DNA of 33,438 nt from an archaeon (GCA_013139905.1 WSZW01000008.1:1-33438); one strand, 5' to 3'. Positions 2,804-23,764 are shown, counted from the stretch's first letter. Numbers and translations are program-made. The notes: generated by a model from the letters alone, not told the origin.

Positions 2804-3409
2804 ATGGAATACTCACATAAATTGGAACTTTTTGCGTATTGTCGTGAATCTGTTGATCTGAAAACAGGAATAGAAATTCAAAAGGAATCTATTCAAAGAT
2901 ATTGTGATGCATATGAGATCACAATTCAAAAATGGTTCATTGATAATGATGCAAGTGCTTACAAGTATAGACCGAACTTTGAAAAAATGTGGAACTCACT
3001 TGATGGATGTGATGGGGTAATTGTAAAAGACCTTTCACGTTTTGGTAGGAGTGATGCAGATATGTTGGCTAAGTTCAATGAAATGAAAGATAGTGGTAAA
3101 CGGCTGATCCTTATCAAAGAAAACATTGATTCATCCACTCCGGAGACTGAATTTTTCTTAAAGATACTGGCATTGTTTGCGGACCGGGAAGCAACTACCA
3201 TAAGAGAGCGGTTGACTGCTGGAAGGGCATATGCAAAGATTCATGGGACAAAGTCAGGTAAACCCATGCACAGACCAGCAAAGAAAATCAACTGGGAGAA
3301 GTTCGATGAAATGAGGGGGAAAGGAATTTCAGTAATTAATATTGCCAAGATGATGGGGATAAGCCAAAGTAAATTATATCATGATATCAAGATAAGACCA
3401 AAGCAATAA
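2804..3409 (+). CDS. Small serine recombinase (resolvase/invertase family) with C-terminal HTH
   Basis: It aligns by eye along the whole length to gamma-delta resolvase. Matches include LFAYCRES (catalytic Ser), VIVKDLSRFGRSDADM, ILALFADREATTIRERLTAGRAYAK and the HTH ISVINIAKMMGISQSKLYHDI. Confidence 0.9.
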   Translation: MEYSHKLELFAYCRESVDLKTGIEIQKESIQRYCDAYEITIQKWFIDNDASAYKYRPNFEKMWNSLDGCDGVIVKDLSRFGRSDADMLAKFNEMKDSGKRLILIKENIDSSTPETEFFLKILALFADREATTIRERLTAGRAYAKIHGTKSGKPMHRPAKKINWEKFDEMRGKGISVINIAKMMGISQSKLYHDIKIRPKQ

Positions 3410-3571: not shown

Positions 3572-3669
3572 TAGCTCAAGTCACCAGTGGCACTCAGACT
3601 CGCTCTATAGAGCGGCCTGGTGCTACTAAAACACCCGCATGAATGCGGGAGCATGGCTGAGATGATGCA
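3572..3669 (+). repeat. Structured cassette-boundary repeat R1 (5' arm A, partial; core alpha; 3' arm A)
   Basis: TAGCTCAAGTCAC arm. AGTGGCAC-CAG..CTG-GTGC-ACT stem enclosing CGCTC-TATA-GAGCG. CCCGCA-TGAA-TGCGGG hairpin. GCATGGCTGAGATGATGCA arm. Confidence 0.85.
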
Positions 3670-3713
3670 AAAATATAAGTATGACTAAATTAAATTGTGT
3701 AGTGTGATTAATC

Positions 3714-3914
3714 ATGACCAGAAAATACACAACAAAAAAAGACCGTGTGAGAAATATAAACGGAATTGTTTTTAAAGAGTCGCAGGGCAACCTCACAAAG
3801 AAAAAAGCAAGACAAATTGCAGCAACGTGGAATATGAAGGGACGAAAAGCAAGAGTGCTTCCTAGTAAATGGCCCATACAGCACACTTGGTCGGTGTTTA
3901 TAGAAAAGAAGTAA
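3714..3914 (+). CDS. Small basic protein (66 aa)
   Basis: GTGTGAT SD-like motif lies before the ATG. An A/T-rich TATA-like tract follows directly after R1. A T8 run follows the ORF. Confidence 0.6.
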   Translation: MTRKYTTKKDRVRNINGIVFKESQGNLTKKKARQIAATWNMKGRKARVLPSKWPIQHTWSVFIEKK

Positions 3915-3920
3915 TACAAT

Positions 3921-3938
3921 ATTTATTTTATTTTTTTT
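3921..3938 (+). terminator. Oligo-T tract (archaeal terminator-like)
   Basis: ATTTATTTTATTTTTTTT lies immediately after the stop of 3714..3914. Confidence 0.45.
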
Positions 3939-3942
3939 AGTG

Positions 3943-4033
3943 TTGCATTGGTGTTAGCTCAAGTCACGGGCGCCAGCGGCGGACCGCCCAACCCCTGCTT
4001 AGAAAGCAGGGGCATGACTAAGATTGACCCCTG
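3943..4033 (+). repeat. Repeat R2 (5' arm A; GC-rich core delta; 3' arm B)
   Basis: TTGCATTGGTGTTAGCTCAAGTCAC arm. GGGCG..CGCCC stem. CCCCTGCT-TAGAA-AGCAGGGG hairpin. Ends CATGACTAAGATTGACCCCTG. Confidence 0.85.
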
Positions 4034-4110
4034 CTTTTAATATTCTCTTTTTTATAATGGTTGTGTTGTAAACCGACAAGTTTAAGTAAGTTTAAGGCGT
4101 ATTATTAACT

Positions 4111-4245
4111 ATGAAGTGTAAGGCTTTGAAATCAAGTAATGAAGGACGGAGAGTTGAATGCCAAGCAGTTGATACAAACAAATGTAAAAAAACAAGAGGA
4201 CAATTTAATGTAACACAATATTGTTGGTGTATCAAGGAGGAATGA
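4111..4245 (+). CDS. 44-aa Cys-rich mini-protein
   Basis: ORF read by eye (MKCKALKSS...YCWCIKEE). Its stop overlaps the AGGAGG SD of the next gene. Confidence 0.4.
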   Translation: MKCKALKSSNEGRRVECQAVDTNKCKKTRGQFNVTQYCWCIKEE

Positions 4246-4248
4246 ATA

Positions 4249-4422
4249 ATGAAATGTAAAAAAATAGATTGTGATGAATGTGGTATAAACATCACTGATA
4301 GAGTCTACTATGCACAAGGATATACTTATAATTGTTGTTCTCATGGGTGTCTGGCACGGATAATGTTGAATGTTCAGGTATCGACAATTCAAGCAAGATT
4401 TGATTATTTGAATGAGGATTAA
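4249..4422 (+). CDS. 57-aa zinc-binding mini-protein (TRASH/MYM-like Cys spacing)
   Basis: AGGAGG SD lies upstream. CDEC-x19-CC-x3-C pattern (CDECGINITDRVYYAQGYTYNCCSHGC). Confidence 0.5.
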   Translation: MKCKKIDCDECGINITDRVYYAQGYTYNCCSHGCLARIMLNVQVSTIQARFDYLNED

Positions 4423-4425
4423 ACT

Positions 4426-4617
4426 ATGAAAAACTGGATTGATAACTTAGGGTTTGTACTGGTTTTTGTCGTGTATGCAATCGGTGCAGCATATACTGGT
4501 GTTATTTCTTATGGGATTGTGAGATTGGTATTTGGGGGGATGGGTATTTTATCTTTGATTTTTGCCATTCTTTTAATGAAAGATATGTTACTAAAAACCG
4601 AGGGGTCGGTATCTTAG
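4426..4617 (+). CDS. Small two-helix membrane protein (63 aa)
   Basis: GAGGATTAAACT lies before the ATG. Two hydrophobic helices are present. The C-terminal codons (EGSVS*) lie inside the R3 5' arm. Confidence 0.6.
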   Translation: MKNWIDNLGFVLVFVVYAIGAAYTGVISYGIVRLVFGGMGILSLIFAILLMKDMLLKTEGSVS

Positions 4618-4718
4618 AGTAGATGATGAGTCACTTGCACGTCCCTGACTCGTCCATAGGACGGCCAGGGCGAGCAAAAACACCCGGATGAATCCGGGAG
4701 CATGGCTAAGATGATGCA
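4600..4718 (+). repeat. Repeat R3 (5' arm B; core beta; 3' arm A)
   Basis: GAGGGGTCGGTATCTTAGAGTAGATGATGAGTCAC arm. TTGC-CG-CCCTG..CAGGG-CG-GCAA stem enclosing CGTCC-ATA-GGACG. CCCGGA-TGAA-TCCGGG hairpin. GCATGGCTAAGATGATGCA arm. Confidence 0.9.
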
Positions 4719-4860
4719 AAAAGTATTTAATACAATAAACACTGTTTTTATATGAGTGATTTTTTATGTCTAAAATTGTTCATGTAAAAGCACATACAAG
4801 AAAAGATCCAAAAACCGCAATTGCCTGGATAGTCGGATACGATATGAAGAAGGAATAATA

Positions 4861-5343
4861 ATGGATAAGAAAATAGCATTATTGGCAGTGTTTCTGCTTA
4901 TTGGCGTCGCATCAGCGGCGATATTGACAGAATATTTCAGAGATGAGCGAACCGTAGAAGTAACACCGTGGATGTCATTCGATGTAAATAATGACCCACG
5001 AGATACCACATATGGGCTCACTCAACTATATGATTATATCAATATCACTAGTCATAAGAAGTATTCTACGACATGTGAGATTGATACCGAGATATGGTTC
5101 AATGGGGAAGAACTAATCGATACAGAAGGCATCAAAGTCGATTATAGTGTAGAATCTGGAAGCGGTGCACTAATCACTCCATCTGATAATAATAACAATG
5201 GTCTTCCTGAAGCTGCAGTGTTTGGCACCCAGGACGCAGATGGAATATATACCATCAGACGGAATATCAACATCAATGAGGATCTGATTCCAGGAACATA
5301 CCGGATAGTCACTATATTAGTGCCGTATCAGGGAAATTCTTGA
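4861..5343 (+). CDS. Secreted/membrane-anchored protein (160 aa) with N-terminal signal-anchor
   Basis: GAAGGAATAATA lies before the ATG. N-terminus MDKKIALLAVFLLIGVASAAIL. No recognisable family. Confidence 0.7.
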   Translation: MDKKIALLAVFLLIGVASAAILTEYFRDERTVEVTPWMSFDVNNDPRDTTYGLTQLYDYINITSHKKYSTTCEIDTEIWFNGEELIDTEGIKVDYSVESGSGALITPSDNNNNGLPEAAVFGTQDADGIYTIRRNININEDLIPGTYRIVTILVPYQGNS

Positions 5344-5382
5344 GTAGGAAACATAATTATTCGCTATGGCTAAATTGTTACA

Positions 5383-5490
5383 AAGTGCTAGCTCTCAGGT
5401 CACTTGCACAAACCTCACACGTTCTGCGGAACGGCGATGTTGAGCAAAAACACCCATCTAAAGATGGGATGCATGACTAAAATGGTGGAT
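5383..5490 (+). repeat. Repeat R4 (5' arm A, degenerate; core gamma; 3' arm A, degenerate)
   Basis: AAGTGCTAGCTCTCAGGTCAC arm. TTGC..AACCTC..GTTC-TGCG-GAAC..GATGTT..GCAA stem. CCCATC-TAAA-GATGGG hairpin. GCATGACTAAAATGGTGGAT arm. Confidence 0.8.
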
Positions 5491-5649
5491 GAAATGATTA
5501 ATATAAAAGATGAAATGAAACATGTAAAAATTGAAGAAGGACAGATATGGCGTAAACAAGGACCATATGACTGGTTAAAGATTGAAAGAGTTGTTGATCC
5601 TAACTATCCTAGATATGTTGGTGGTGTGTTTTGCAACCATATTATGTAG
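5482..5649 (+). CDS. Small protein (about 55 aa); start uncertain (5473/5482/5494)
   Basis: The track ORF 5404..5649 begins inside R4. The in-frame ATGs at the R4 3' arm are more plausible starts. Confidence 0.5.
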   Translation: MVDEMINIKDEMKHVKIEEGQIWRKQGPYDWLKIERVVDPNYPRYVGGVFCNHIM

Positions 5650-5765
5650 ATATACTAGATGAAATATGTAGTTTCTGTGGTGGGCCGTTGATGACAACCA
5701 CGTTGAATGAAGACACATCCGAATGTATTAATTGTAAAGCCAAATTTGAAATAGAAGATTGCTAA
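5631..5765 (+). CDS. 44-aa zinc-ribbon mini-protein, TTG start
   Basis: CSFC...CINC pairs are present. The frame opens at 5613. TTG 5631 follows a GGTGGTG SD-like motif. It overlaps the preceding ORF by 19 nt. Confidence 0.4.
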   Translation: MQPYYVDILDEICSFCGGPLMTTTLNEDTSECINCKAKFEIEDC

Positions 5766-5767
5766 CG

Positions 5768-5888
5768 TTGCATGGGTGTTGGCTCAAGTCACGGGCGCCG
5801 GTCCGAATGCGAGAATCCCGCATGACAAGCGCCCAACTCCCCACAGCGCTTCGCTAACGTGGGGAGCATGACGACGGAGATGATGCAT
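5768..5888 (+). repeat. Repeat R5 (5' arm A variant; core epsilon; 3' arm A)
   Basis: TTGCATGGGTGTTGGCTCAAGTCAC arm. GGGCGC..GCGCCC stem enclosing ATGCG-AGAATCC-CGCAT. CTCCCCAC..GTGGGGAG hairpin. CATGACGACGGAGATGATGCAT arm. Confidence 0.85.
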
Positions 5889-6074
5889 ATGGCAAGAACA
5901 CAAAGAAGTAAAAAACGTCGGCAGCAAATAAGAGAATTTAGAAAGGAAAATAATATTACGAACTGCAAGCGCTGTGGTGAACCACTTGGAATGACTTCAC
6001 ATAATTTTCTATGTTCAAAGTGTTGGAATATTCAAGAAAACTTCCCTAAATTCGATAGGCCAAAAACAATATAA
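5889..6074 (+). CDS. Basic zinc-ribbon protein (about 61 aa); alternative in-frame ATGs at 5880/5883 inside R5
   Basis: MARTQRSKKRRQQ..., then CKRCGEPLGMTSHNFLCSKC. The track start 5859 lies inside the repeat. Confidence 0.6.
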   Translation: MARTQRSKKRRQQIREFRKENNITNCKRCGEPLGMTSHNFLCSKCWNIQENFPKFDRPKTI

Positions 6075-6082
6075 AAAGCGAG

Positions 6083-6379
6083 GTGAAAATATTGGATGAA
6101 ATATTGTTAATATCTGCATATAATGAAATTATAAAAAAGCAACCACTTTCACGAATGGGTTATGTTGATATGCATAACTTGTATTCAGAAATTAGAAATA
6201 AAAAAGGAATAACATTACAACTATTTAAAGAATGGATGGTTGAATTTTTCAATAAATATAATTTAAATGGATTTGAATTTGCAAGAGCAACGATAGCAAG
6301 AACAGAAGTTAAACGATATTCGTTTATTATTGACAATAATGTATATTATTATATGGTAAAAAGGATGCATAGGTGCTAG
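6083..6379 (+). CDS. Hypothetical protein (about 95-98 aa); TTG 6092 is the likelier start
   Basis: GTG 6083 is part of the GAGGTGA SD. The ORF terminates on the second TAG of the R6 5' arm (..MHRC*). Confidence 0.6.
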   Translation: MKILDEILLISAYNEIIKKQPLSRMGYVDMHNLYSEIRNKKGITLQLFKEWMVEFFNKYNLNGFEFARATIARTEVKRYSFIIDNNVYYYMVKRMHRC

Positions 6380-6474
6380 CTCAAGTCACTTGCACAGCGC
6401 TGACACGATCAGAGGTCGGCCAGCCTGAGCAAAAACTCCCGGATGAATCCGAGAGCATGGATAAGATGATGCAT
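6364..6474 (+). repeat. Repeat R6 (5' arm A; beta-like unique core; 3' arm A)
   Basis: GATGCATAGGTGCTAGCTCAAGTCAC arm. TTGC-CAG-GCTG..CAGC-CTG-GCAA stem with inner CGATC-AGA-GGTCG (U.G wobble). CTCCCGGA-TGAA-TCCGAGAG hairpin. GCATGGATAAGATGATGCAT arm. Confidence 0.9.
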
Positions 6475-6476
6475 AA

Positions 6477-6710
6477 ATGACACGAACAAGAAGAATATAC
6501 AATAATCCAAACTTAAAGAAAACCCCCCGGTCACATATAGACGAGGGTGAATATATTCCAAGAGGCATACCATTTACACGAAGAAGCTGGATATGTATGG
6601 GGATGTGTCGCGGATGTAGAGACCCAGAAAAGGATCCGCGAGCAATTCGTAATAAAATGAAATCGCAATTTAAATTTCAATTGATGTATGAAAAGGAAAT
6701 GATAGTATGA
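6477..6710 (+). CDS. Small basic protein (77 aa)
   Basis: The ATG is 3 nt after the end of R6, with no SD. The protein is Arg/Lys-rich and contains CMGMCRGC. Confidence 0.6.
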   Translation: MTRTRRIYNNPNLKKTPRSHIDEGEYIPRGIPFTRRSWICMGMCRGCRDPEKDPRAIRNKMKSQFKFQLMYEKEMIV

Positions 6711-6814
6711 ATAATTATGAATTGGCTGTGGCGGTAGATGTTGTACTGCTCATTATAGGTTTGGTGTTATTATACAAATCTATGAAAGATAGACAAAGTG
6801 GGCAAGCGGAGTGA
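6707..6814 (+). CDS. 35-aa single-TM mini-protein
   Basis: ATGA start/stop overlap with the upstream ORF. Hydrophobic core AVAVDVVLLIIGLVLLY. Confidence 0.4.
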   Translation: MNNYELAVAVDVVLLIIGLVLLYKSMKDRQSGQAE

Positions 6815-6821
6815 AAGTTAT

Positions 6822-7013
6822 ATGAAAGAATATATATTGAAACTTGAAAATTCATTGGGTAATGGTATAGTTGCCACGTTTGTAAAAGTAAAAGACTTGA
6901 TAAAACACACGGAAGACAATCCACCACAACGAAAATACCATTATTATATGGTAGTCAAAGAAACCACTGAGACAAGAGTTGATATGAAAGCGATAAAACA
7001 ATTTTATTCGTGA
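6822..7013 (+). CDS. Small protein (63 aa)
   Basis: GGAGTGA SD lies before ATG 6822; the track GTG 6798 is less likely. The stop TGA is the first triplet of the R7 5' arm. Confidence 0.55.
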   Translation: MKEYILKLENSLGNGIVATFVKVKDLIKHTEDNPPQRKYHYYMVVKETTETRVDMKAIKQFYS

Positions 7014-7126
7014 TGCATAGGTGCTAGCTTAAGTCACTTGCGCAAACCTTACTCATTCTGCGGAATGGCAAGGTTGAGCAAAAACTCACGGGCTCAAAGC
7101 CCGAAGCATGAACGGAGATGATGCAT
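7012..7126 (+). repeat. Repeat R7 (5' arm A; core gamma; 3' arm A)
   Basis: GATGCATAGGTGCTAGCTTAAGTCAC arm. TTGC..AACCTT..ATTC-TGCG-GAAT..AAGGTT..GCAA stem. CGGGCT-CAA-AGCCCG hairpin. GCATGAACGGAGATGATGCAT arm. Confidence 0.9.
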
Positions 7127-7128
7127 GA

Positions 7129-7332
7129 ATGAACAATGAAAAATACCACTGTGAAGATTGTGAACAATTTATAAACAAAGGGAAGATGCACGATGAAAAT
7201 GAATCAGAGTTTATGAAAGAAATACATCGTGAATGGGGTGAGTGTAGAGACAGAGCAGAAGTTCATGCCAAAGCACCCATATGTGAAACGTTTGTAAAAC
7301 GAAAGTCATTAAAGGGTTTGTTCTTTAGATAA
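7129..7332 (+). CDS. Small Cys-containing protein (67 aa)
   Basis: The ATG is 3 nt after R7. HCEDCEQF...ECRD...PIC. Confidence 0.6.
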   Translation: MNNEKYHCEDCEQFINKGKMHDENESEFMKEIHREWGECRDRAEVHAKAPICETFVKRKSLKGLFFR

Positions 7333-7341
7333 TGATGACAC

Positions 7342-7456
7342 GATGCATAGGTGCTAGCTCTCAGTCACTTGCAGCAACCTGACACGCTCTACGGAGCGGC
7401 CAGGTGCAGCAAAAACACCCATCTGAAGATGGGATGCATGAACGGAATGAACCCCT
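7342..7456 (+). repeat. Repeat R8 (5' arm A; beta-like unique core; 3' arm B-like)
   Basis: GATGCATAGGTGCTAGCTCTCAGTCAC arm. TTGC-GCA-CCTG..CAGG-TGC-GCAA stem enclosing CGCTC-TACG-GAGCG. CCCATC-TGAA-GATGGG hairpin. GCATGAACGGAATGAACCCCT arm. Confidence 0.85.
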
Positions 7457-7483
7457 TAAATAATAAATTGATAAGGTGATGAA

Positions 7484-8236
7484 ATGATTGATAATATGAC
7501 CCCAACGAAAGAACAGAAGAAAGAATTTATAGTAAAGGCACTTGGAATTGCAGGATTCACAGAAAAGGAAAACTACCAATGGCTGTATACCCAAGAACAC
7601 GGTATGAAAACTGTTGTAGTGAACTTAAACGAATGGCCCGTTAAGCCATATTTCAACGTTAGTGGTAAGAAGATTACAGAGGACGATGAACATGCAACGT
7701 TGAAGAAGGTAAGAACCATCATTAATGAGGCGGAGGGTGGCCAGATGCCTTCGAGGACAGAGGCTGACATTGTTGTGAACGTTGGTACGAAAGATACATC
7801 TGCTGATGATATAGATGCACCAGAGCATAAGAAGTATGCACAGGTCGAGACACCAGACCAGCCAGACGATGCGCCTACACAAACACATAAAACAATGACT
7901 CATGAAGAAGCAATGGCATTACCAAAACAACAGTTTATAGATAGATGCAAAGCATGGTTGGATGAATTCAATGACGGCAACCAACTAAACATAGATGGTC
8001 CCACAAAATGTCCTATTCATGCCTGGGTAATGCATAACCACCAAGCATGTTGCAAAGATTTAGTTGGTGGTATAACAAATTGTGAGATCTGCGGCCAGCC
8101 GATGTGCCCAGATTGTTCAAACCACGGAGTAACTCAACTCTCGAGAGTAACCGGGTACATTCAAGATGTCGCTGGATTTAATGCAGGAAAAAAGCAAGAG
8201 TTGGCCGACCGCAAAAAACACGATACATTTAGGTAA
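7484..8236 (+). CDS. 250-aa protein with C-terminal NrdD-type zinc-ribbon plus glycyl-radical domain; N-terminal 170 aa unknown
   Basis: GGTGA SD lies upstream. The C-terminus CEICGQPMCPDCSNHGVTQLSRVTGYIQDVAGFNAGKKQELADRKKH matches the E. coli NrdD tail RRVCGYLGSPDARPFNAGKQEEVKRRVKH. Confidence 0.75.
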   Translation: MIDNMTPTKEQKKEFIVKALGIAGFTEKENYQWLYTQEHGMKTVVVNLNEWPVKPYFNVSGKKITEDDEHATLKKVRTIINEAEGGQMPSRTEADIVVNVGTKDTSADDIDAPEHKKYAQVETPDQPDDAPTQTHKTMTHEEAMALPKQQFIDRCKAWLDEFNDGNQLNIDGPTKCPIHAWVMHNHQACCKDLVGGITNCEICGQPMCPDCSNHGVTQLSRVTGYIQDVAGFNAGKKQELADRKKHDTFR

Positions 8237-8250
8237 ATTTAGTTAATAAT

Positions 8251-8270
8251 GATGACTGGGATTGACCCCT
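8251..8270 (+). repeat. Orphan 3' arm B relic (no core)
   Basis: GATGACTGGGATTGACCCCT matches CATGACTAAGATTGACCCCT of R2/R10. It lies 7 nt upstream of the truncated 5' arm of R9. Confidence 0.55.
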
Positions 8271-8277
8271 TTATATG

Positions 8278-8379
8278 AGCCGTAGATTAGTCACTAGTGG
8301 CACTCAGACTCGCTCAGTAGAGCGGCCTGGTGCTACTAAAACACCCGCATGAATGCGGGAGCATGGATAAGATGATGCA
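8278..8379 (+). repeat. Repeat R9 (5' arm B, truncated; core alpha; 3' arm A)
   Basis: GAGCCGTAGATTAGTCAC arm. The core is nearly identical to R1 and R14. GCATGGATAAGATGATGCA arm. Confidence 0.9.
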
Positions 8380-8424
8380 AAAATATTTATTTAATAAAAA
8401 CAAACAATAAAGATGTGATATATC

Positions 8425-8622
8425 ATGCCAAAAGGAAGAAACACAATGGATTTTATGGTTTCATTTAGACAACCTAACATGCCAGGTAAAAGCAAATATA
8501 GAATTCAAGCATATTCAAAATCTGATGCATTGAAACGGGCAAAAGCAAGATGGCCGTCATCTGGAGAATTTGAAGTATTGTATGGAGTGAAAACGGTTCG
8601 TGGAAAATCTGTCAAATTTTAA
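8425..8622 (+). CDS. Small basic protein (65 aa)
   Basis: A TATA-like AAATATTTATTTAAT tract follows R9. GATGTGAT SD-like motif lies before the ATG. Confidence 0.6.
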   Translation: MPKGRNTMDFMVSFRQPNMPGKSKYRIQAYSKSDALKRAKARWPSSGEFEVLYGVKTVRGKSVKF

Positions 8623-8639
8623 TTTTTGTTCGCCGATGG

Positions 8640-8750
8640 TTGCATAGGAGTTGGCTCAAGTCAGGGGCGCCGGTCCGAATGCGAGAATCCCGCATGACAA
8701 GCGCCCAACTCTCCCTTAGAAAGGGAGAGCATGACTAAGATTGACCCCTG
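8640..8750 (+). repeat. Repeat R10 (5' arm A variant; core epsilon; 3' arm B)
   Basis: TTGCATAGGAGTTGGCTCAAGTCA arm. The GGGCGC..GCGCCC stem is identical to R5. CTCTCCCT-TAGAA-AGGGAGAG hairpin. CATGACTAAGATTGACCCCTG arm. Confidence 0.9.
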
Positions 8751-8760
8751 TCTTTTTTTA
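8751..8760 (+). terminator. Oligo-T tract after R10
   Basis: TCTTTTTTTA lies directly after the 3' arm B. Confidence 0.35.
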
Positions 8761-8809
8761 AATAGAAATCCTTAAATAGAATAACTTACTTACTTAGTAT
8801 GGTGATATT

Positions 8810-9016
8810 GTGAAAATACAAATTCAAGTATTAAACCGCATCGATGAATTGACTTGTGAAATGGAAGATACAAAACATTCCATGGATAATGGTGGGACAA
8901 ACTTATTTTTTTACATGGAACATAAAAGAAAGTTGTTAGAGCAAGCAACCGAAATAAAACATCTATGTTGGGTAATAGATGAAGAAGTACCAAAACATAT
9001 TTTAGCCTTGTTATGA
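8810..9016 (+). CDS. Small protein (68 aa), GTG start
   Basis: GGTGA SD lies 4 nt upstream of GTG 8810. Confidence 0.55.
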   Translation: MKIQIQVLNRIDELTCEMEDTKHSMDNGGTNLFFYMEHKRKLLEQATEIKHLCWVIDEEVPKHILALL

Positions 9017-9020
9017 GGTT

Positions 9021-9221
9021 ATGAAAATGAAAAATCTTAATGAGAAATTTACTGATGGGGAATATGCAGAATTGATGAGATTGAAGAACTTTATTGGTTT
9101 GCCTTGGCATGATCTATTATTGCAGATATTCAGAGAAGGTGAAAAGACCGTTATAAAAATGTTGGTTGCGGAGGGACACACCAAAGAAGAGATTGAAGAA
9201 ATGTTTAATGAGAGGAATTGA
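9021..9221 (+). CDS. Small protein (66 aa)
   Basis: TGAGGTT lies before the ATG. It is closely packed with its neighbours. Confidence 0.55.
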   Translation: MKMKNLNEKFTDGEYAELMRLKNFIGLPWHDLLLQIFREGEKTVIKMLVAEGHTKEEIEEMFNERN

Positions 9222-9224
9222 AAG

Positions 9225-9380
9225 ATGACAGTTGTAGTGTGTGATAAAAAGGACTGTGCTCACTATGAGAATGGCATCTGTGAAATGGAACAGATATACT
9301 TTGAATTGATAAATGATGTACTTACGTGTGTAGATGATACTGAGTTTATTGAGGGGTCTGATCACAGAGCCGATGAATAG
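9225..9380 (+). CDS. 51-aa Cys-containing mini-protein
   Basis: GAGAGG lies before the ATG. VCDKKDCAHYENGIC. The last 9 codons (EGSDHRADE*) lie inside the R11 5' arm B. Confidence 0.5.
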   Translation: MTVVVCDKKDCAHYENGICEMEQIYFELINDVLTCVDDTEFIEGSDHRADE

Positions 9381-9469
9381 TCACTTGCGCGTCCCTGACT
9401 CGTCCACAGGACGGCCAGGGCGAGCAAAAACACCCGGATGAATCCGGGAGCATGGATAAGAAGACACAT
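9351..9469 (+). repeat. Repeat R11 (5' arm B; core beta; 3' arm A, degenerate)
   Basis: GAGGGGTCTGATCACAGAGCCGATGAATAGTCAC arm. The core is almost identical to R3 and R15. GCATGGATAAGAAGACACAT arm. Confidence 0.9.
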
Positions 9470-9489
9470 GAAAAGAGGCGAATAAATAA

Positions 9490-9678
9490 ATGAATGTAAG
9501 AATGTGGATATACACACATGTGGTGTGGGTATGGATGGTTTTGGCATGTGTTGTTGCTTATAATTTAGATAACATACCGATGATTTATGAATATTTTGAG
9601 GTTTTCGCAGGATTATATATTGCAGGATGTTTAATACTTTTCAGGGTTCAATCAAAAGACAACAATGTGGTGAAATAA
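9490..9678 (+). CDS. Small two-helix membrane protein (62 aa)
   Basis: AGAGGCGA lies before the ATG. Two hydrophobic helices are present. Confidence 0.55.
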   Translation: MNVRMWIYTHVVWVWMVLACVVAYNLDNIPMIYEYFEVFAGLYIAGCLILFRVQSKDNNVVK

Positions 9679-9852
9679 ATGGTAACTAAATTAGGTAAAT
9701 TTGAACTTAATACAAAGAAATGGAGAATAGAAAATGGATTAACAGGATCAGAGTGGAAAATATTTGTTGAGAATAGAGGCAATATTTTAGTAGTGGTTGT
9801 TGTTCTTGTTTCGATTGCATTTTTCATTCTTGGTTATACGTGTCCATTTTAG
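9679..9852 (+). CDS. 57-aa protein with C-terminal TM helix
   Basis: ORF read by eye (MVTKLGKFELNTKKW...ILVVVVVLVSIAFFILGY). The ATG is adjacent to the upstream stop. Confidence 0.45.
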   Translation: MVTKLGKFELNTKKWRIENGLTGSEWKIFVENRGNILVVVVVLVSIAFFILGYTCPF

Positions 9853-9874
9853 TGTGTGTGTAGATGATACTATG

Positions 9875-9943
9875 GATGCATAGGTGTTGGCTAGAAGTCA
9901 ACCGCACCCGGCTACAAGCAGGATGCATGCGGGAATGATGCAT
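9875..9943 (+). repeat. Repeat R12 (short form: 5' arm A; single composite hairpin; 3' arm A)
   Basis: GATGCATAGGTGTTGGCTAGAAGTCAA arm. CCGCA[CCGGCT-ACA-AGCAGG]ATGCATGCGG hairpin. GAATGATGCAT arm. Confidence 0.7.
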
Positions 9944-10210
9944 AAAAATGAGGTGAATAAATTGAAAAGTAAAGAAGAGATTGTTTTAACTGAAATAAAA
10001 GGGGCAAATGATATTGACAGTCCAATTTGGTTTACAAAAATAGTTGAAAATCTAGATGGTGTGTTGTCTAGAAGTGAAGTTGGAATAGCAATTGACAGAT
10101 TAAGTGATTTGGGTTATATAAAAGGAAGATATGGTGAAGTTAGAAAAGGATGGAGTGGATATAAATATCATATTACAGACATTGGTGAATCGTTATTTAA
10201 GATGCGCTAA
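9938..10210 (+). CDS. Winged-helix-like small DNA-binding protein; start uncertain (ATG 9935/9938 in R12, or TTG 9962 after GAGGTGA)
   Basis: The track ORF starts at 9884 inside R12. LSRSEVGIAIDRLSDLGYIKGRYGEV..YKYHITDIGESL resembles a wHTH wing. Confidence 0.5.
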   Translation: MHKNEVNKLKSKEEIVLTEIKGANDIDSPIWFTKIVENLDGVLSRSEVGIAIDRLSDLGYIKGRYGEVRKGWSGYKYHITDIGESLFKMR

Positions 10211-10211
10211 C

Positions 10212-10302
10212 GATGCATAGGTGCTAGCTATAAGTCAAGGGCGCCAGCGGCGGACCGCCCAACTCCCTGCTAGAAGCAGGGAGCATGACTAAGTTTGACC
10301 CA
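10212..10302 (+). repeat. Repeat R13 (5' arm A; core delta; 3' arm B)
   Basis: GATGCATAGGTGCTAGCTATAAGTCAA arm. The GGGCG..CGCCC stem is identical to R2. CTCCCTGC-TAGAA-GCAGGGAG hairpin. CATGACTAAGTTTGACCCA arm. Confidence 0.9.
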
Positions 10303-10331
10303 TTGAATGAATAAATAAAGAGAGTGAATAT

Positions 10332-10517
10332 ATGACAAGCCCAGAACAAATACTCGCTATCGGAATTGAACGATTGGCAATGATGCGCGAAATGGCGAAA
10401 ATTATCATAAATGCAGAAACCAAAGAAGATATCCTTTTTATTTTAAAAACAATGGAAGAACAACTGGATGAAGGAATTACTGAAATTGATGTGTTGTGCA
10501 AACAAATGGGAGAATAA
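10332..10517 (+). CDS. Small acidic helical protein (61 aa)
   Basis: GAGAGTGA SD lies before the ATG. Confidence 0.55.
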   Translation: MTSPEQILAIGIERLAMMREMAKIIINAETKEDILFILKTMEEQLDEGITEIDVLCKQMGE

Positions 10518-10522
10518 TAAAT

Positions 10523-10837
10523 ATGCAAGTCGGAACAAAGGAGATCCCGGACGAATTGTTTTATAGATATCTGCGATTAATCAAAGCGACTGAACGAAGC
10601 AGTGAACGATACAACTATGATTTTGATAAGGAACGAGAGGCCGTTCATGATGAAATTATACATCATGTCAATCTCTTACCACACATGAAAGAATATAGAG
10701 AATTTCAAAGCCATCTACAAGATTTGTGTGAAGATATGTTGCCATCAAGATTTCCGCCATCGCAGATACCTATAACAATAAATCCCCCAAATAGTGGTTT
10801 GATGTCTAATAGAGGGGTCGGATCACAGAGCCGATAG
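10523..10837 (+). CDS. Hypothetical protein (about 104 aa)
   Basis: ATG 10523 follows the upstream stop; the track start 10496 overlaps the previous ORF. The C-terminal codons (RGVGSQSR*) lie inside the R14 5' arm B. Confidence 0.55.
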   Translation: MQVGTKEIPDELFYRYLRLIKATERSSERYNYDFDKEREAVHDEIIHHVNLLPHMKEYREFQSHLQDLCEDMLPSRFPPSQIPITINPPNSGLMSNRGVGSQSR

Positions 10838-10931
10838 ATAGTCACTAGTGGCCATCAGACTCGCTCTATAGAGCGGCCTGGTGCTACTAAAACTCCCGCA
10901 TGAATGCGGGAGCATGACTAAAATGATGCAT
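10812..10931 (+). repeat. Repeat R14 (5' arm B; core alpha; 3' arm A)
   Basis: GAGGGGTCGGATCACAGAGCCGATAGATAGTCAC arm. Core as in R1 and R9. GCATGACTAAAATGATGCAT arm. Confidence 0.9.
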
Positions 10932-10984
10932 GAAAAGGAAGTGGGATATATGAAAGTAATTTATGTTGAAAGGTGAGATAGTAA

Positions 10985-11095
10985 ATGATTAAAAGTACAG
11001 ATCCATATAAAAATACTGGAGCAATACATACTGATCCAGAGAATGATAAGTATTTATATGAATTACAAAAAAATAAAAGTAAAAGAGGTGAATAA
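10985..11095 (+). CDS. 36-aa mini-protein
   Basis: AAGGTGAGA SD lies before the ATG. ORF read by eye (MIKSTDPYKNTG...). Confidence 0.4.
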   Translation: MIKSTDPYKNTGAIHTDPENDKYLYELQKNKSKRGE

Positions 11096-11099
11096 ATAA

Positions 11100-11282
11100 A
11101 TGGAAAACATAATCAAAAAGGTAAGAGTATTTGAGTCAAAATCAAATTACCACAACGGTGAAGATATCGGCTCTGGGTTTGCAGTGATTGTAGATCCACT
11201 ACTAACAACCGGACACCAGAAATGGCAAGTTGCACAGGCGATAAGGTATGCATTAGAGAATTTGGTATTAGAGGATGAATAA
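11100..11282 (+). CDS. Small protein (60 aa)
   Basis: AGAGGTGA SD lies before the ATG. Confidence 0.55.
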   Translation: MENIIKKVRVFESKSNYHNGEDIGSGFAVIVDPLLTTGHQKWQVAQAIRYALENLVLEDE

Positions 11283-11309
11283 TGACAAAGCAAAGGAGAT
11301 GAAAAGAAT

Positions 11310-11426
11310 ATGTTCTGTCGTCATGAATGGATAAAAGTAGGTGGTCCACAAAGAGCTGGACCCGGACAATTCAGTCAACATTTTAGATGTGTTAAATGTA
11401 ACAAAACAAAAAGACTGGTTGATTAA
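11310..11426 (+). CDS. 38-aa zinc-finger-like mini-protein
   Basis: AAGGAGATGA SD lies upstream. FCRHEW...RCVKCN. Confidence 0.45.
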   Translation: MFCRHEWIKVGGPQRAGPGQFSQHFRCVKCNKTKRLVD

Positions 11427-11428
11427 CA

Positions 11429-11539
11429 ATGCATAGGTGCTAGCACGAAGTCACTTGCGCGTCCCTGACTCGTCCACAGGACGGCCAGGGCGAGCAAAAA
11501 CTCCCGGCTGAAGCAGGGAGCATGGTTAAACTGATGCAT
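11429..11539 (+). repeat. Repeat R15 (5' arm A; core beta; hybrid P3; 3' arm A)
   Basis: ATGCATAGGTGCTAGCACGAAGTCAC arm. Beta stem identical to R11. CTCCCGGC-TGAA-GCAGGGAG hairpin. GCATGGTTAAACTGATGCAT arm. Confidence 0.9.
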
Positions 11540-11714
11540 AAAAGCAGTTGCACGAAACAAAGCACTGTTTGCAAATGCTATATGGTCCGTATCAAATCCT
11601 TTGTTGGTGGGATATAACTATTATAATGGAATGATTGAACAATCTATCATGTTCGCTGTTTTTACATTGGTGGCAGGGTATGGGGTATATAATTTAAAAA
11701 TTAAAGCGGAGTGA
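11535..11714 (+). pseudogene. N-terminally truncated paralogue of the 15084..15320 membrane protein, abutting R15
   Basis: The frame is open from 11535 with no ATG/GTG/TTG until mid-ORF. NAIWSVSNPLLVGYNYYNGMIEQSIMFAVFTLVAGYGVYNLKIK aligns to NVLWLISNPAMSVYNYNINEFEMAGMFGVYSMIAVYGVYNLKLK. Confidence 0.5.
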
Positions 11715-11719
11715 AAGCA

Positions 11720-11869
11720 ATGACAGATACTATGGACTTACTAACAATCAATACTTGTGATTTGAATGAATTAAAAGTTGATTTGGACGGAGATTTTTAT
11801 ATGTCCATATCAGATCGTGTAGGATTTGTGACCGACTTTATTGAACTGGTAGATAAATATAGAATATGA
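11720..11869 (+). CDS. 49-aa acidic mini-protein
   Basis: GGAGTGA SD lies upstream, the same context as at 6806. The stop TGA is the first triplet of R16. Confidence 0.45.
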   Translation: MTDTMDLLTINTCDLNELKVDLDGDFYMSISDRVGFVTDFIELVDKYRI

Positions 11870-11924
11870 TGCATAGGTGCTACAACGAAGTCAACTACCA
11901 TGCCTTAAAAGGCATGGCATCATC
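11868..11924 (+). repeat. Repeat R16 (terminal short form: 5' arm A then terminator-like hairpin)
   Basis: GATGCATAGGTGCTACAACGAAGTCAAC, then CCATGCC-TTAAAA-GGCATGG and GCATCATC, which is the inverted GATGATGC. Confidence 0.65.
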
Positions 11925-11938
11925 TAATTTCTTTTTTT
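11898..11938 (+). terminator. Hairpin plus T7 run closing the cassette array
   Basis: CCATGCC/GGCATGG stem (11898-11917) is followed by TTTCTTTTTTT. Confidence 0.5.
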
Positions 11939-12265: not shown

Positions 12266-14137
12266 ATGTTTTGTGGTGATATCACAGTGACTAAATCTAT
12301 GAATCCTAAAGTATTATGCCGTTTTGCTTGTGAAAGATATGAAAATGATTGTATATATAATGCAATAGACACATCCACAATATTTGATAATAAAAACAAT
12401 GGTATTAATTGTGATAATATAATTTTAAATAAACATTATGGTATAGATATTCCAAATTCATATAAAATATTGAATGATAAAAATGAACTTGGAACGTTTC
12501 AATATATTAAAAAAATAAACATTAAAACAAATGAAGTTGATGAGGACTATAATATAATTTGTTATCAACCAACGTGGTTAAACAATTCTTTTGTTGACCA
12601 CCTTACAAAACTTCATTATATGGAATTGTGTTACATGTATCGTGGTAGTGTGATAATTCAAATTGTGAGTCAAAAAGATATACTCACAACAACAGGATTA
12701 AAAATACTTACTGCTGCTGGATTGAATGTTCCAGAAAGTAAAATGAGAAATCTTGCCGACTATTATGCTACATATATATCAGAGTCGTCCACACTTGAAG
12801 AGATGGAAATATTTTCTCGGTTCGGTTGGTCTATGGATGTGATGAAATTCACCATTGGTGATAATTCTGTGTCAGAAGATGATATACAAAAAACATATCT
12901 AACACAGGACATCGCAACAGAAACGATTGATGCGCTTTCGCCGGTTGGAAGTTCTGCGGGGTGGATGGATGTTACTAAAGGTTTATTACAACATGATAAT
13001 GTTAGATTTACATGTTATGCGGTGGTAGCGTCACTTTTGTTAAAGGTGTTGGGTGGTGCATCATTCGTTGTTGAATTGGTAGGTGATACCAGCACTGGTA
13101 AAACAATTGCTGCACAGTTGGCTATGTCGATATTTGGGAATCCACAAAAACTTAAATTAGCAACCAGTGCCACAAAGGTATTTATCGAGAGAACTTGCAC
13201 CACATGTTGTGACTTACCTATATTTTTAGATGAAACAAGTATGATGCAATCAGAGATATTGACTGAAATAAGTTATATGGTAGCTAATGAAAGGAGCCGA
13301 GGGCGTGGTAAAAAGGAAGGTGGAGTAGAAGCCGTGTCTACTTGGAAAACTGTATTACTCACAACCGGTGAAGTTCCTTTATTGAGTTCTGGTAGCTTAG
13401 GTGGTCAGGATGTAAGAACTGTTTCATTGTACGGTGGAATAGGTGTATACGATCCTGAAAATGTTGACTTGTTTAGAGAGAAAATGGAAGAAAATTGTGG
13501 AACCATTGCACCACTGCTTATTCAGAAAATATTGAAATATAAAGATGATTTGGAAGGTTTTTATATAAATATAAGAGATGATTTAAAAGAATATAGTAAA
13601 GCAGATAAAACCGGAGTAATAGGTAGAGTGGTTGATACGTATGCTTTAATTTCATTGGCAGGATTTGTATTTGAATCTGTTATAGAAGATTTAGGGTATG
13701 ATACTAAAGATGCTTTTGAATTAGTAGAAAATAAGTTCAATGATAAAATTACACAATCTGATGGTAGCCTTCCGGAAAGGGCATTTTTAATAATAACTGA
13801 TTGGATTATAGAAAATAAAAAGAATTTTTGTAATGATAAAGAAGGATATGCAGGTGATAGATATGACCTTTATGGTAATATGTCTATGGAATTTCCGGAC
13901 AACGAAGCACCATATGATTATGTGGATATTATACCTCAGCGGTTCTATGAAGTTATGGATAATAAACTTAATCACCCAGGAATTTCAAAACGAATTTTAA
14001 GAGATTGGCAGGGAAGTGGTAAAATAATTGTTGATAAAAACGGTAAAAACACCATCTTGGCAACAATTAAAAGCGGAACCAAACAGACACGAGTTATAAG
14101 GGTGAAACTTCCTTTGCCTATTGGTGGGGTAAATTAA
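12266..14137 (+). CDS. Replication protein: unknown N-terminal domain plus superfamily-3 helicase (DUF927/D5-like)
   Basis: Walker A VGDTSTGKT, Walker B LPIFLDETS, motif C VLLTTGE, and SIFGNP as in DUF927 helicases. ATG 12299 is the alternative start if the transcript is leaderless from the TTTTATTTTATTTAAA tract. Confidence 0.8.
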   Translation: MFCGDITVTKSMNPKVLCRFACERYENDCIYNAIDTSTIFDNKNNGINCDNIILNKHYGIDIPNSYKILNDKNELGTFQYIKKINIKTNEVDEDYNIICYQPTWLNNSFVDHLTKLHYMELCYMYRGSVIIQIVSQKDILTTTGLKILTAAGLNVPESKMRNLADYYATYISESSTLEEMEIFSRFGWSMDVMKFTIGDNSVSEDDIQKTYLTQDIATETIDALSPVGSSAGWMDVTKGLLQHDNVRFTCYAVVASLLLKVLGGASFVVELVGDTSTGKTIAAQLAMSIFGNPQKLKLATSATKVFIERTCTTCCDLPIFLDETSMMQSEILTEISYMVANERSRGRGKKEGGVEAVSTWKTVLLTTGEVPLLSSGSLGGQDVRTVSLYGGIGVYDPENVDLFREKMEENCGTIAPLLIQKILKYKDDLEGFYINIRDDLKEYSKADKTGVIGRVVDTYALISLAGFVFESVIEDLGYDTKDAFELVENKFNDKITQSDGSLPERAFLIITDWIIENKKNFCNDKEGYAGDRYDLYGNMSMEFPDNEAPYDYVDIIPQRFYEVMDNKLNHPGISKRILRDWQGSGKIIVDKNGKNTILATIKSGTKQTRVIRVKLPLPIGGVN

Positions 14138-14144
14138 ATGCTAC

Positions 14145-22403: not shown

Positions 22404-22412
22404 GGATTAAAA

Positions 22413-22763: not shown

Positions 22764-22764
22764 A

Positions 22765-22777: not shown

Positions 22778-22798
22778 AGTTAAAACCAATTTATTACT

Positions 22799-23763: not shown

Positions 23764-23764
23764 C

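Follow-up and report, generated by a model that had tools for sequence, protein, structure and literature searches.

A folded repeat separating accessory-gene slots in an archaeal virus-like element from cold-seep sediment

Small genes of one archaeal locus are parted, again and again, by copies of the same structured sequence. What kind of element is this repeat, and does it act as a site in DNA or as a part of a transcript? We report here that the folded repeat separating these gene slots is a previously undescribed one, carried by an archaeal virus-like element from cold-seep sediment. Its role is put forward tentatively: most likely, it is a transcribed punctuation and insulation element.

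A repeat array between small genes

Repeat finding, a profile HMM trained on the 16 window copies and a covariance model alike recovered exactly 16 copies on the + strand of the window, the whole 33.4-kb stretch of DNA that was analysed. These copies, R1 to R16, start at about 3572, 3943, 4600, 5377, 5768, 6364, 7012, 7342, 8258, 8640, 9351, 9875, 10212, 10812, 11429 and 11868, with nhmmer E-values of 1e-31 to 5e-3. No further copy lies elsewhere in the window and none on the - strand, as the original prediction had held, and the number of chance matches expected for the 24-nt arm pattern is zero. About 15 slots of small accessory genes are parted by the repeats, which take up the stop-to-start gaps between genes. 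Relative to the stop codon of the preceding ORF, copies begin anywhere from 36 nt upstream to 27 nt downstream, and the next ORF starts 3-78 nt past the end of the copy. The GC content of the units is 46-65%. All 40 covariance-model matches in six arrays lie on the sense strand of the adjoining genes, and an invertible-segment system (Hin/Gin/shufflon) was rejected because all slots share this co-orientation too.

The flanks of the array are as had been predicted. A gene for a small serine recombinase of the resolvase/invertase type (2804..3409, + strand; Pfam PF00239, E = 4.4e-28) lies on the 5' side. On the 3' side, a hairpin and a T7 run (11897-11938, + strand) are followed by the replication module, which starts with a gene for a DUF927/Cch-HTH primase-helicase (12266..14137, + strand; Pfam PF06048, E = 4e-45); the homologues of the latter include one recorded as '[archaeon]'. 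Likewise, the repeat matches no described RNA family. Rfam gave no match at gathering thresholds over the whole window and none of relevance at E <= 10 between 3400 and 12300, and annotated phages and plasmids contained no match to the repeat. ARAGORN, run with tRNA-like punctuation in mind, reported no genes.

Each unit consists of three parts. The 5' arm begins with box X, continues with AGGUGCUAGC and closes on an invariant AAGUCA; the core is a three-way junction with two variable hairpins, hpA and hpB; and the 3' arm begins with an invariant GCAUG (GCAUGAC-UAAGAU) and ends with box X'. Both AAGUCA and GCAUG are unvaried over about 55 copies, which, together with the strict sense orientation of the units, indicates selection. 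The single-stranded nucleotides of the three-way junction (strands C / AAAAC / GAGCA) are invariant as well. As expected of a structured cis-acting RNA, hpA and hpB are real helices kept by compensatory substitutions. Both sides changed in 20 of the 28 modelled pairs, 91.5% of the alignment cells are paired against 24-41% in a control with the partners slid, and none of 500 shuffles reached the observed covariation. In the same analysis, P1 (AGUCA/UGAC) had no compensatory changes. The core is therefore structured, as claimed earlier, but as two hairpins on a three-way junction and not as a single hairpin.

Conservation of the arms, also claimed earlier, holds for AAGUCA and GCAUG but not throughout. 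A divergent (type-B) 5' arm, GAGGGGTC..., is present in R3, R11 and R14, and a divergent 3' arm, ...TTGACCCC, in R2, R10 and R13. Hybrid units with A/B or B/A arms are common, and units combine their 5' arm type, core allele and 3' arm type in different ways, the points of exchange being the invariant junctions AGTCAC and GCATGAC. R1 lacks the first half of its 5' arm and R16 the 3' arm. Some 3' arms contain a GGAG Shine-Dalgarno sequence or adjoin a start codon.

Complementarity across gene slots

The new finding, absent from the first description of the locus, is complementarity of boxes across each slot: box X' of unit n is complementary to box X of unit n+1 and not to X of unit n. Over 44 adjacent pairs in 8 arrays, the X'(n)/X(n+1) duplex energy lies at z = -5.25 against permuted partners (0 of 100,000 permutations), whereas complementarity of X and X' within a single unit gives no signal (z = +0.36). 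About 80% of the slots are matched across, and the rule is broken in about 20%. At least seven box pairs covary; those listed are AUGCAU/AUGCAU, AUGCAA/UUGCAU, GACCCC/GGGGUC and GCACAUG/CAUGUGC, together with the rare pairs AUGCAC/GUGCAU, AACCCAU/AUGGGUU, GGCACA/UGUGCC and GCGCAC/GUGCGC, sighted once or twice each, which match across the slot only. Moreover, the first unit of an array lacks X (window R1) or is just a 3' half (E0 of array L039, and L004), and the last is a 5' half-unit with a hairpin and T-run behind it (window R16 and arrays L001, L010 and L009). Such half-units are predicted if the brackets formed in place, and with the across-unit pairing they indicate that the arms serve as brackets round each gene slot. 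When all adjacent arm pairs were cofolded, type-A brackets formed 5-bp and 6-8-bp helices parted by 6-nt and about 13-nt strands, and type-B brackets contained two bulges, both on one strand. By inspection, none of these cofolds contained an archaeal bulge-helix-bulge site (two 3-nt bulges on opposite strands of a 4-bp helix).

The rule can be followed along the + strand of the window. In R1 (3572..3670), box X and the GGUG portion of the 5' arm are missing and AAGUCAC is retained; the copy has an alpha2 core and an X' of AUGCAA that runs into a BRE/TATA-like AAAAATATAAG. This box pairs with UUGCAU, the X of R2 (3943..4033), which has a beta1 core and a type-B 3' arm with GACCCCU as X'. The type-B 5' arm of R3 (4600..4719; X = AGGGGUC, then AUCUUA) forms a duplex of -17 to -23 kcal/mol with the 3' arm of R2. 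Inside this bracket lie a putative terminator and promoter (4034..4110, + strand) with T4 and T6 runs and the TATA-like AAGTTTAAG, present twice in tandem; by inspection, these boxes stand about 27 nt 5' of the ATG at 4111, which suggests a leaderless transcript. The region is kept in L009 with 89.5% identity. R3 has an alpha1 core and X' = AUGCAA, and R4 (5377..5491) a degenerate 5' arm, an alpha3 core and X' = GGUGGAU. In R5 (5768..5888), X = UUGCAU precedes a beta2 core with a long hpB, and a GGAG Shine-Dalgarno sequence lies in the 3' arm, whose X' = AUGCAU stands immediately before the next ATG. The canonical R6 (6364..6474) has A/A arms and an alpha4 core; the preceding ORF stops at a UAG within its 5' arm, and the next ATG is 3 nt past the copy. 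R7 (7012..7126) combines A/A arms with an alpha3-like core, and R8 (7342..7457) an A-type 5' arm with an alpha3 core and a 3' arm ending in GAACCCCUU.

R9 (8258..8380) is the sole clear exception to the rule within the window. In its atypical 5' flank, GAUUGACCCCUUU is joined to a type-B 5' arm of which just the distal half is present, ahead of an alpha2 core and X' = AUGCAA. The latter pairs with the UUGCAU of R10 (8640..8750), a unit with a beta2 core and a type-B 3' arm, followed by a T7 run and TATA-like boxes at 8753-8809. The X' of R10 in turn pairs at -17 kcal/mol with the type-B 5' arm of R11 (9351..9470; alpha1 core, X' = GACACAU). R12 (9875..9943) is a short form without hpA and has A/A arms. 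R13 (10212..10305) has an A-type 5' arm, a beta1 core and a type-B 3' arm (GACCCA), whose X' pairs at -13 kcal/mol with the type-B 5' arm of R14 (10812..10931; alpha2 core, A-type 3' arm). R15 (11429..11539) has A/A arms and an alpha1 core. Finally, the terminal half-copy R16 (11868..11938) comprises X, the 5' arm and AAGUCAA, lacks GCAUG, and includes the terminator hairpin ACCAUGCC/GGCAUGG.

Promoter and terminator signals, called by inspection, complicate the brackets. No TATA-like box lies inside a unit; such boxes occur outside, 3' of some X' boxes. In type-B slots, a T6-T9 run comes after X', as does a putative promoter, a TATA-like box that precedes a leaderless start by about 27 nt. 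In the AUGCAA variant, X' overlaps the BRE/TATA-like sequence, and in two slots a T8 run lies 5' of X. Thus, in several slots X' sits 5' of what appears to be the slot's own promoter, and these brackets are the best matched. Since transcripts from slot promoters would lack one or both boxes, an RNA bracket would form in read-through transcripts only.

Relatives, gene turnover and the cassette question

The repeat is restricted to about 8 metagenomic contigs, from cold seeps among other sources, and a covariance-model search found it absent from related elements with homologous recombinase or primase genes. Slot contents are almost wholly different from array to array and highly polymorphic among related arrays, as would be anticipated for an integron-like layout. 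An integron-like DNA cassette platform is nevertheless possible rather than likely. The units would then be folded single-stranded DNA recombination sites, and slots would leave the array as circles and be inserted again. X/X' would correspond to the R boxes of attC and AGTCA/TGACT to its L boxes; the unpaired central spacer would have its counterpart in the asymmetric internal loop, and the variable terminal structure in hpA with hpB. Crossover would take place at a fixed point, between the 3' arm and X' or between AAGTCA and C. The slot-edge complementarity would be the footprint of a circular intermediate, as with integron cassettes.

The resemblance is considerable. Integron attC (59-be/VCR) sites are likewise co-oriented, folded and variable, lie between small, mostly unknown genes, and have the same order of outer box pair, unpaired spacer, inner box pair and variable terminal structure. 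The edge of an integron cassette complements its downstream site, and the bracket rule is identical: the box at the 5' edge of a slot is the complement of the box that opens the unit downstream of that slot. Furthermore, X' and X flank whole putative transcription units in the best-matched brackets, which fits a DNA role better than an RNA role. Reassortment of arm types and core alleles at fixed junctions is also compatible with cassette exchange, as is a recombinase gene at the head of the array in two of the three arrays with that flank visible, divergently oriented in L010 like intI.

However, the defining parts of an integron are missing. No Phage_integrase domain was found by Pfam among ORFs of at least 90 aa and slot ORFs, only the serine Resolvase, and the window has no tyrosine or HUH enzyme and no attI; RYYYAAC/GTTRRRY core sites are also lacking: GTTRRRY occurs about as often as chance predicts (76 times, against an expected 72 +/- 8) and away from unit borders. 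On both enzyme and boxes the original prediction was right, but the serine recombinase was not borne out as a specific partner of the array. Serine recombinases act on double-stranded sites, homologues with 64-74% identity sit in repeat-free relatives, and the L004 array has no recombinase within 9 kb upstream. Judged by these comparisons, the enzyme of the window is probably the element's own integrase or invertase and not a dedicated partner of the repeat. In addition, hybrid A/B units are unable to fold as closed sites within the array, the final slot is always closed by a truncated unit, and variation lies in the outer boxes and invariance in the inner ones, whereas in attC it is the other way round.

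The pattern of turnover also differs from that of an integron. The gene set inside the same type-B bracket differs among the window, L009 and L039, so the bracket belongs to the slot and not to a mobile gene; as it stays while genes change, slots are not cassettes carried along with their flanks. In the few array comparisons available, homology between the window and L009 or L039 breaks off within slots or at ordinary gene borders, and gene exchange is not limited to site borders. Of the integron-like layout, the boundary rule across slots is observed, but site-bounded movement with fixed breakpoints was not seen in these comparisons. One 950-bp operon has a different place and the opposite orientation in L039 compared with the window, and units do not bound it. 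Between arrays whose primase proteins share about 60% identity, core alleles reach 87-100% identity, which indicates sequence-level constraint, or exchange, beyond structure alone.

A selfish or neutral repeat family, made up of non-autonomous MITE-, BOX- or ERIC-like repeats or of PeSL-like patches promoting homologous recombination, is quite unlikely. Matched flanks would then be a by-product of moving arm-gene-arm blocks among once arm-uniform arrays. The modular A, variable B and C build recalls pneumococcal BOX elements, discrete core alleles are common to different viruses, distribution is patchy among relatives with homologous backbone genes, and mosaicism is extensive. BOX, ERIC and Correia elements are also transcribed intergenic repeats of about 100 nt with conserved ends and a variable middle. 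They are scattered round the chromosome and close via their own terminal inverted repeats, whereas the units here are arrayed, co-oriented with genes and paired with the neighbouring unit. Ancestral closure within the unit predicts a significant X/X' match, but pairing there is not above chance, and rare box variants match across the slot only. The units have no target-site duplications, surrounding terminal inverted repeats or transposase, and the signs of selection noted above also argue against neutrality. The PeSL-flanked hyperplastic regions of T4-type phages are similar in that short conserved modules flank small, highly variable ORFs beside replication or early genes, with gene content shuffled among relatives. 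A PeSL consists of an early promoter and one stem-loop; the units here contain no promoter and are GC-rich three-way junctions with covarying helices and across-slot complementarity.

Proposed punctuation of a transcript

Under the preferred reading, transcript punctuation, the unit would be a cis-acting structured module of single-stranded nucleic acid, most likely carried on the sense RNA of a long operon of accessory genes in an archaeal virus or plasmid-like element. The 3' arm of one unit would pair with the 5' arm of the next, looping out each gene slot from a stem, and junctions and bracket stems would give every slot defined, protected ends. The folded units may form a common recognition site for an RNA-binding protein or endonuclease, host or viral; no nuclease for such processing was identified in the analysis. 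In this way, transcripts of unrelated accessory genes would be processed and stabilised, and their translation controlled together. Additionally, the conserved units could act as homology patches, letting genes swap in and out. Gene co-orientation, the Shine-Dalgarno sequences and start codons of the 3' arms and the terminal terminator point to an RNA role at least as much as to a DNA recombination site. On this reading, it would be RNA that folds, brackets would form in place, and the role would be one of processing or regulation.

The layout recalls rRNA operons as well as integrons, and is a member of neither. In rRNA operons, pairing flanks loop out each part of a long transcript (16S and 23S rRNA), with structured spacers in between as here, and archaeal pre-rRNA processing stems are cleaved, then circularised. 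The RNase III sites of phage T7 are repeated intercistronic hairpins on a polycistronic viral transcript, and as there, the units could define or protect mRNA ends; to our knowledge, RNase III is generally absent from archaea. Unlike in both systems, the looped-out parts here code for proteins, the stems are short (5 bp and 6-8 bp, with a 6 x 13-nt loop), bulge-helix-bulge sites are missing, and some slots have an apparent promoter and terminator of their own within the bracket.

Excision and circularisation of slot RNA, whereby a new self-cleaving motif centred on AAGUCA/GCAUGA or a host endonuclease would cut at the conserved junctions and ends held by the bracket stem would be ligated (e.g. 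by RtcB) into circular or end-paired mRNAs, draws on the likeness to pre-rRNA stems, the invariant junction nucleotides and the invariant GUC-containing motifs next to helices, but is improbable, as Rfam ribozymes gave no match even at E <= 10, the junction strands are by inspection unlike hammerhead, hairpin, twister and pistol cores, the bracket loops of 6 nt and 13 nt do not form a 3-4-3 bulge-helix-bulge, and slot promoters and terminators raise the same problem as for punctuation. The adjacency signal was alike on both strands (z = -4.4 and -4.7), and the apparent extra stability of the minus strand was mostly an effect of composition.

A structured repeat between accessory genes

The array of 16 structured repeats put forward in the original prediction is borne out, with exact-seed repeat finding, direct reading, a profile HMM and a covariance model in agreement. 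All 16 copies (units R1 to R16) lie on the + strand between 3572 and 11938; an HMM built from them and the covariance model found no copy elsewhere in the window, and the number of chance matches expected for the 24-nt arm pattern is zero. Units start from up to 36 nt before to up to 27 nt past the stop codon of the upstream ORF, and the next ORF starts 3-78 nt after the unit end. Thus, the units occupy the whole intergenic space. The predicted surroundings were also recovered, namely a recombinase gene of the Resolvase family (2804-3409) before the array, and a terminator and the replication module after it, represented by a hairpin with a T7 run (11897-11938) and a DUF927/Cch primase-helicase gene (12266-14137).

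Each unit consists of a 5' arm, a core of two hairpins (hpA and hpB) linked through AAAAC, and a 3' arm. The arms fall into sequence classes. The type A 5' arm reads GAUGCAU-AGGUGCUAGCNN-AAGUCA and its type B counterpart GAGGGGUC-GGAUCACAGAGCCGAUAGAU-AGUCA, while the type A 3' arm reads GAGCAUGAC-UAAGAU-GAUGCAU and the type B 3' arm has the terminal sequence UGACCCCUG. AAGUCA and GCAUG are invariant or almost so across the units. A single copy folds into a three-way junction made of an AGUCA/UGACU helix, hpA and hpB. The two hairpins are strongly supported as helices by compensatory change: in a MAFFT alignment of 23 long copies, both sides are altered in 16 of 28 pairs and 89% of cells pair, compared with 31-41% in slid controls, and in a covariance-model alignment of 40 copies from six arrays the values are 20 of 28 and 91.5%, compared with 24-41%. 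The AGUCA/UGAC helix shows one-sided changes only. Moreover, hpA occurs as discrete alleles (alpha1-4, beta1-2, or none) and the same ones are seen in different arrays, which indicates that the units are modular. Inspection showed no covariation between GGUG of the 5' arm and CACC of the linker, so that a tertiary contact between the two was rejected, and minus-strand coding through the units is ruled out by 1-nt indels between alleles and by the pattern of compensatory substitutions.

The element belongs to none of the families tested. Rfam searches were empty at gathering thresholds and, when relaxed to E <= 10, gave no relevant match, ARAGORN found no tRNA, and BLAST against 50,697 phage and archaeal virus records (INPHARED) and 72,556 plasmids (PLSDB) returned no match. 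Literature searches by topic and by sequence string did not find the repeat described. A hairpin ribozyme was considered since AGAAGUCAACC in R12 and AAACAC after hpA look like the sTRSV ribozyme; it is ruled out by the negative Rfam result, by an hpA without a loop-B-like internal loop and by the confinement of the likeness to a few copies. On inspection, the G.A pairs, CUGA, CUGAUGA and ACA-pocket features needed for hammerhead, kink-turn, C/D-box or H/ACA arm readings are unconserved, and the arm pairs differ in geometry from a bulge-helix-bulge motif. The element is a genuine, modular and previously undescribed family of structured intergenic elements of archaeal mobile elements, and the bracketed slots that it delimits house accessory genes. 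There is a real but small chance that it is categorically new; the closest systems in logic are the processing stems of rRNA operons and the boundaries of integron cassettes.

The element is rare, with a patchy distribution. By pattern scans and look-ups of gene context it was identified in three IMG/VR contigs (L001, L003 and L004) and in one 1-kb metagenome contig (L029), and three more arrays (L009, L010 and L039) were reached via primase or recombinase homologues. Beyond the three IMG/VR contigs and the 1-kb contig, DNA-pattern and protein-based scans of IMG/VR and scans of GTDB genomes and JGI metagenomes gave chance matches only. Several of the repeat-bearing contigs derive from South China Sea cold-seep metagenomes (PMC9357000). 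Contigs assembled from short reads are interrupted within the arrays. The backbone looks archaeal, judging from one primase homologue named '[archaeon]', GINS51 and MCM genes in relatives, and TATA-like promoter boxes noted on inspection. About 15 related contigs with a homologous primase (41-63% identity) or recombinase (64-74% identity) contain zero copies as checked by nhmmer (E <= 1), the covariance model over 340 kb and repeat finding. The original prediction was to fall if relatives lacked the repeats and kept the same genes in the same order; repeat-free relatives do exist, but their accessory genes differ.

Complementary boxes across gene slots

A new finding of this analysis is that the box closing the 3' arm of one unit (X') and the box opening the 5' arm of the next (X) are matched across the intervening gene slot, forming a bracket. 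A type B 3' arm (...GACCCC) never shares a unit with a type B 5' arm (GGGGUC...); in the window it is followed across the slot by the type B 5' arm of the next unit in three of three cases. The box pair AUGCAA/UUGCAU occurs twice in the window as well. The other arrays carry further pairs: AACCCAU/AUGGGUU and AUGCAC/GUGCAU in L004, GGCACA/UGUGCC in L003, GCACAUG/CAUGUGC (twice) and AGAUCCCU/AGGGGUCU in L010, GCGCAC/GUGCGC in L029, and GCACAU/AUGUGC, ACCCAU/GUGGGU and GACCCC/GGGGUC in L039.

For each two adjacent units, RNAduplex gave the energy of pairing the distal 3' arm of the first with the proximal 5' arm of the second, and these values were compared with those of permuted partners. The signal was significant with 29 pairs (p = 0.00045) and 34 pairs (z = -4.27), and with 44 pairs from eight arrays it reached z = -5.25, with none of 100,000 permutations as strong as observed; the control of boxes within a unit gave z = +0.36. 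Sorting by box type yielded 16 A-A, five B-B (plus two variants), seven C-C and one D, with three clear mismatches. Additionally, arrays begin with a unit without X (window R1) or with a 3' half-unit alone (L004, and E0 in L039, which overlaps the end of the recombinase gene), and they always close with a 5' half-unit, behind which lie a hairpin and a T-run (window R16, L001, L010 and L009). The matched boxes, together with the half-units at the array ends, indicate that the arms act pairwise around a slot.

The sole clear breaker of the rule in the window is the slot between R8 and R9, which is flanked not by complementary boxes but by direct repeats, GAATGAACCCCTTAAAT and GGATTGACCCCTTTATAT (7449-7465 and 8258-8276); this slot may be the trace of a recent insertion. 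The gene in this slot (7484-8236) has a C-terminus matching the NrdD glycyl-radical domain of anaerobic ribonucleotide reductase (Pfam E = 2.9e-11), and its product is reminiscent of a 'spare part' protein; the IMG/VR contig L030, of another virus, has a 117-aa homologue (77% identity) on its own, with no repeat. In L039, two complete units enclose an almost empty slot (14067-14150) of about 85 nt, which is AT-rich and has no ORF of at least 30 aa, so units can persist without a gene in between.

Readings of the boundary rule

A reading in which the two arms of a slot pair in place, as RNA or single-stranded DNA, with the slot looped out as by rRNA processing stems, fits both the half-units that stand at the array ends and the way in which brackets persist as properties of slots. 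Several features count for RNA: sense orientation is strict in all arrays, upstream ORFs have their stop codons in the 5' arm, the 3' arm contains or adjoins Shine-Dalgarno sequences and start codons, and the terminal hpB-like hairpin with its T-run is terminator-like. Other features, however, count against a purely RNA role. Behind type B X' boxes come T6-T9 runs and TATA-like boxes, about 27 nt ahead of starts that seem to be leaderless (at 4034-4110 and 8753-8809 of the window, L039 14815-14864, L004 from 10587 on; the window and L009 share this arrangement as a conserved one), the AUGCAA-variant X' overlaps a BRE/TATA-like AAAAATATAAG, and a T8 run precedes X in two slots. If these putative promoter and terminator signals work, the best-matched brackets would lie outside the transcript of their own slot, and pairing would occur only in read-through RNA or in DNA. 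The minus strand has a fold advantage of 3.9 kcal/mol, which is mostly compositional as shuffled sequences already give 2.5; the excess of G.U over A.C counts in the strand comparison is modest, and the bracket signal is equal on both strands.

The best-supported mechanism, held tentatively as possible rather than probable, is a transcribed module of punctuation and insulation. The junctions and bracket stems would define, protect or expose the ends and start regions of each slot and would offer one shared handle by which slots are processed or controlled coordinately, and the conserved units would double as recombination patches.

It is rather unlikely that archaeal viruses have evolved an integron logic independently from other parts. 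Here, excision and rejoining of a slot, together with its matched half-sites, would pass through a folded single-stranded intermediate (DNA circles, or circular or end-paired RNAs). An enzyme other than a tyrosine integrase, or a ribozyme, would cut at the invariant AAGUCA/GCAUGA junctions, and the covariation across slots would be a footprint left by the intermediate. Integron cassettes obey the same boundary rule, as the first bases of a cassette once belonged to its own attC, and the rule might likewise be the footprint of circular intermediates from integron-like excision. This is weakened and considered unlikely, since hybrid units are unable to close within the array, the terminal unit is truncated in every case, one type B bracket encloses different genes in the window, L009 and L039, and homology breaks off within slots or at ordinary gene borders. 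The match of L009 to window 3980-4264 (89.5%) gives way to divergence beyond it, and L039 has the homologues of window 10978-11285 and of the segment from 7483 onward fused with no unit between. A selfish-repeat origin of the element is quite improbable, and RNA circularisation very much so. Matched arms as a by-product of arm-gene-arm blocks moving between arrays of formerly uniform arms are disfavoured: matching within units is no higher than chance, some 80% of slots have matched boxes, and the rare variants pair up across slots only. DNA inversion of the shufflon kind is ruled out by the co-orientation of every slot.

The recombinase gene adjoins the array head in the window, and the L039 array has at its head a homologue with about 87% DNA identity. 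The head of L010 has a distant, divergently oriented resolvase (29% identity) and that of L004 structural genes in its place, while homologues with 64-74% identity stand beside ordinary small genes in repeat-free relatives. The simplest reading is that recombinase and array both sit in a variable accessory region and are mechanistically independent. Homologous slot proteins among five arrays amount to one pair, and the genes shared by the window and its close relative L039 have different neighbourhoods. By contrast, arrays whose primases share about 60% identity have core alleles that are 87-100% identical.

To our knowledge, very little has been established about how archaeal viruses arrange, express and exchange their numerous small accessory genes. 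The element family offers a concrete handle on these genes, as a conserved three-way-junction module lies between nearly all of them. Furthermore, matched half-sites around each slot are not known as a boundary rule outside integron cassettes and the processing stems of rRNA. Were the system to act on RNA, it would be the first described punctuation or insulation system of archaeal viral operons and a ready-made part for archaeal polycistronic expression; were it to act on DNA, it would be a second, independent invention of a gene-cassette platform.

Further features of the window and its relatives

A small-gene operon of 950 bp, 83% identical between the window (31764-32709, - strand) and L039 (10704-11625, + strand), is relocated and inverted between these close relatives and is not bounded by repeat units. 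In the window it is divergent from the structural genes, and in L039 it directly follows the first half-unit of the array, in array orientation. It includes a conserved non-coding stretch of about 100 nt (window ~32420-32515, - strand; L039 ~10905-11000), which has inverted repeats rich in GC and a CCUCC loop like an anti-Shine-Dalgarno sequence. The two contigs differ there in an apparently compensatory way, and the stretch may be a second structured RNA.

The window record is circularly permuted, and 32735-33438 joins 1-1302: a gene on the + strand, which starts at ~32735 with a signal-peptide-like sequence, extends past the end into a 431-aa ORF (7-1302) with a CarboxypepD_reg domain. Several long direct repeats of 100-145 nt, spaced by 360, 387 and 714 nt, occur at 22137-24130, at and beyond the 3' end of the gene for a 1658-aa DUF2341/beta-helix protein, and suggest repeated domains or duplicated small genes. 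L006, a related element with a homologous primase, has a 36-nt periodic repeat TGGTTCACA...GGGTTTCA (7493-7771 and 9229-9327) in six tandem copies and one distant copy, which may be an iteron array or a coding repeat. Finally, a 96-aa ORF of the window (27636-27926) matches the Imm3 immunity-protein family at cut-off level (Pfam E = 1.4e-5).
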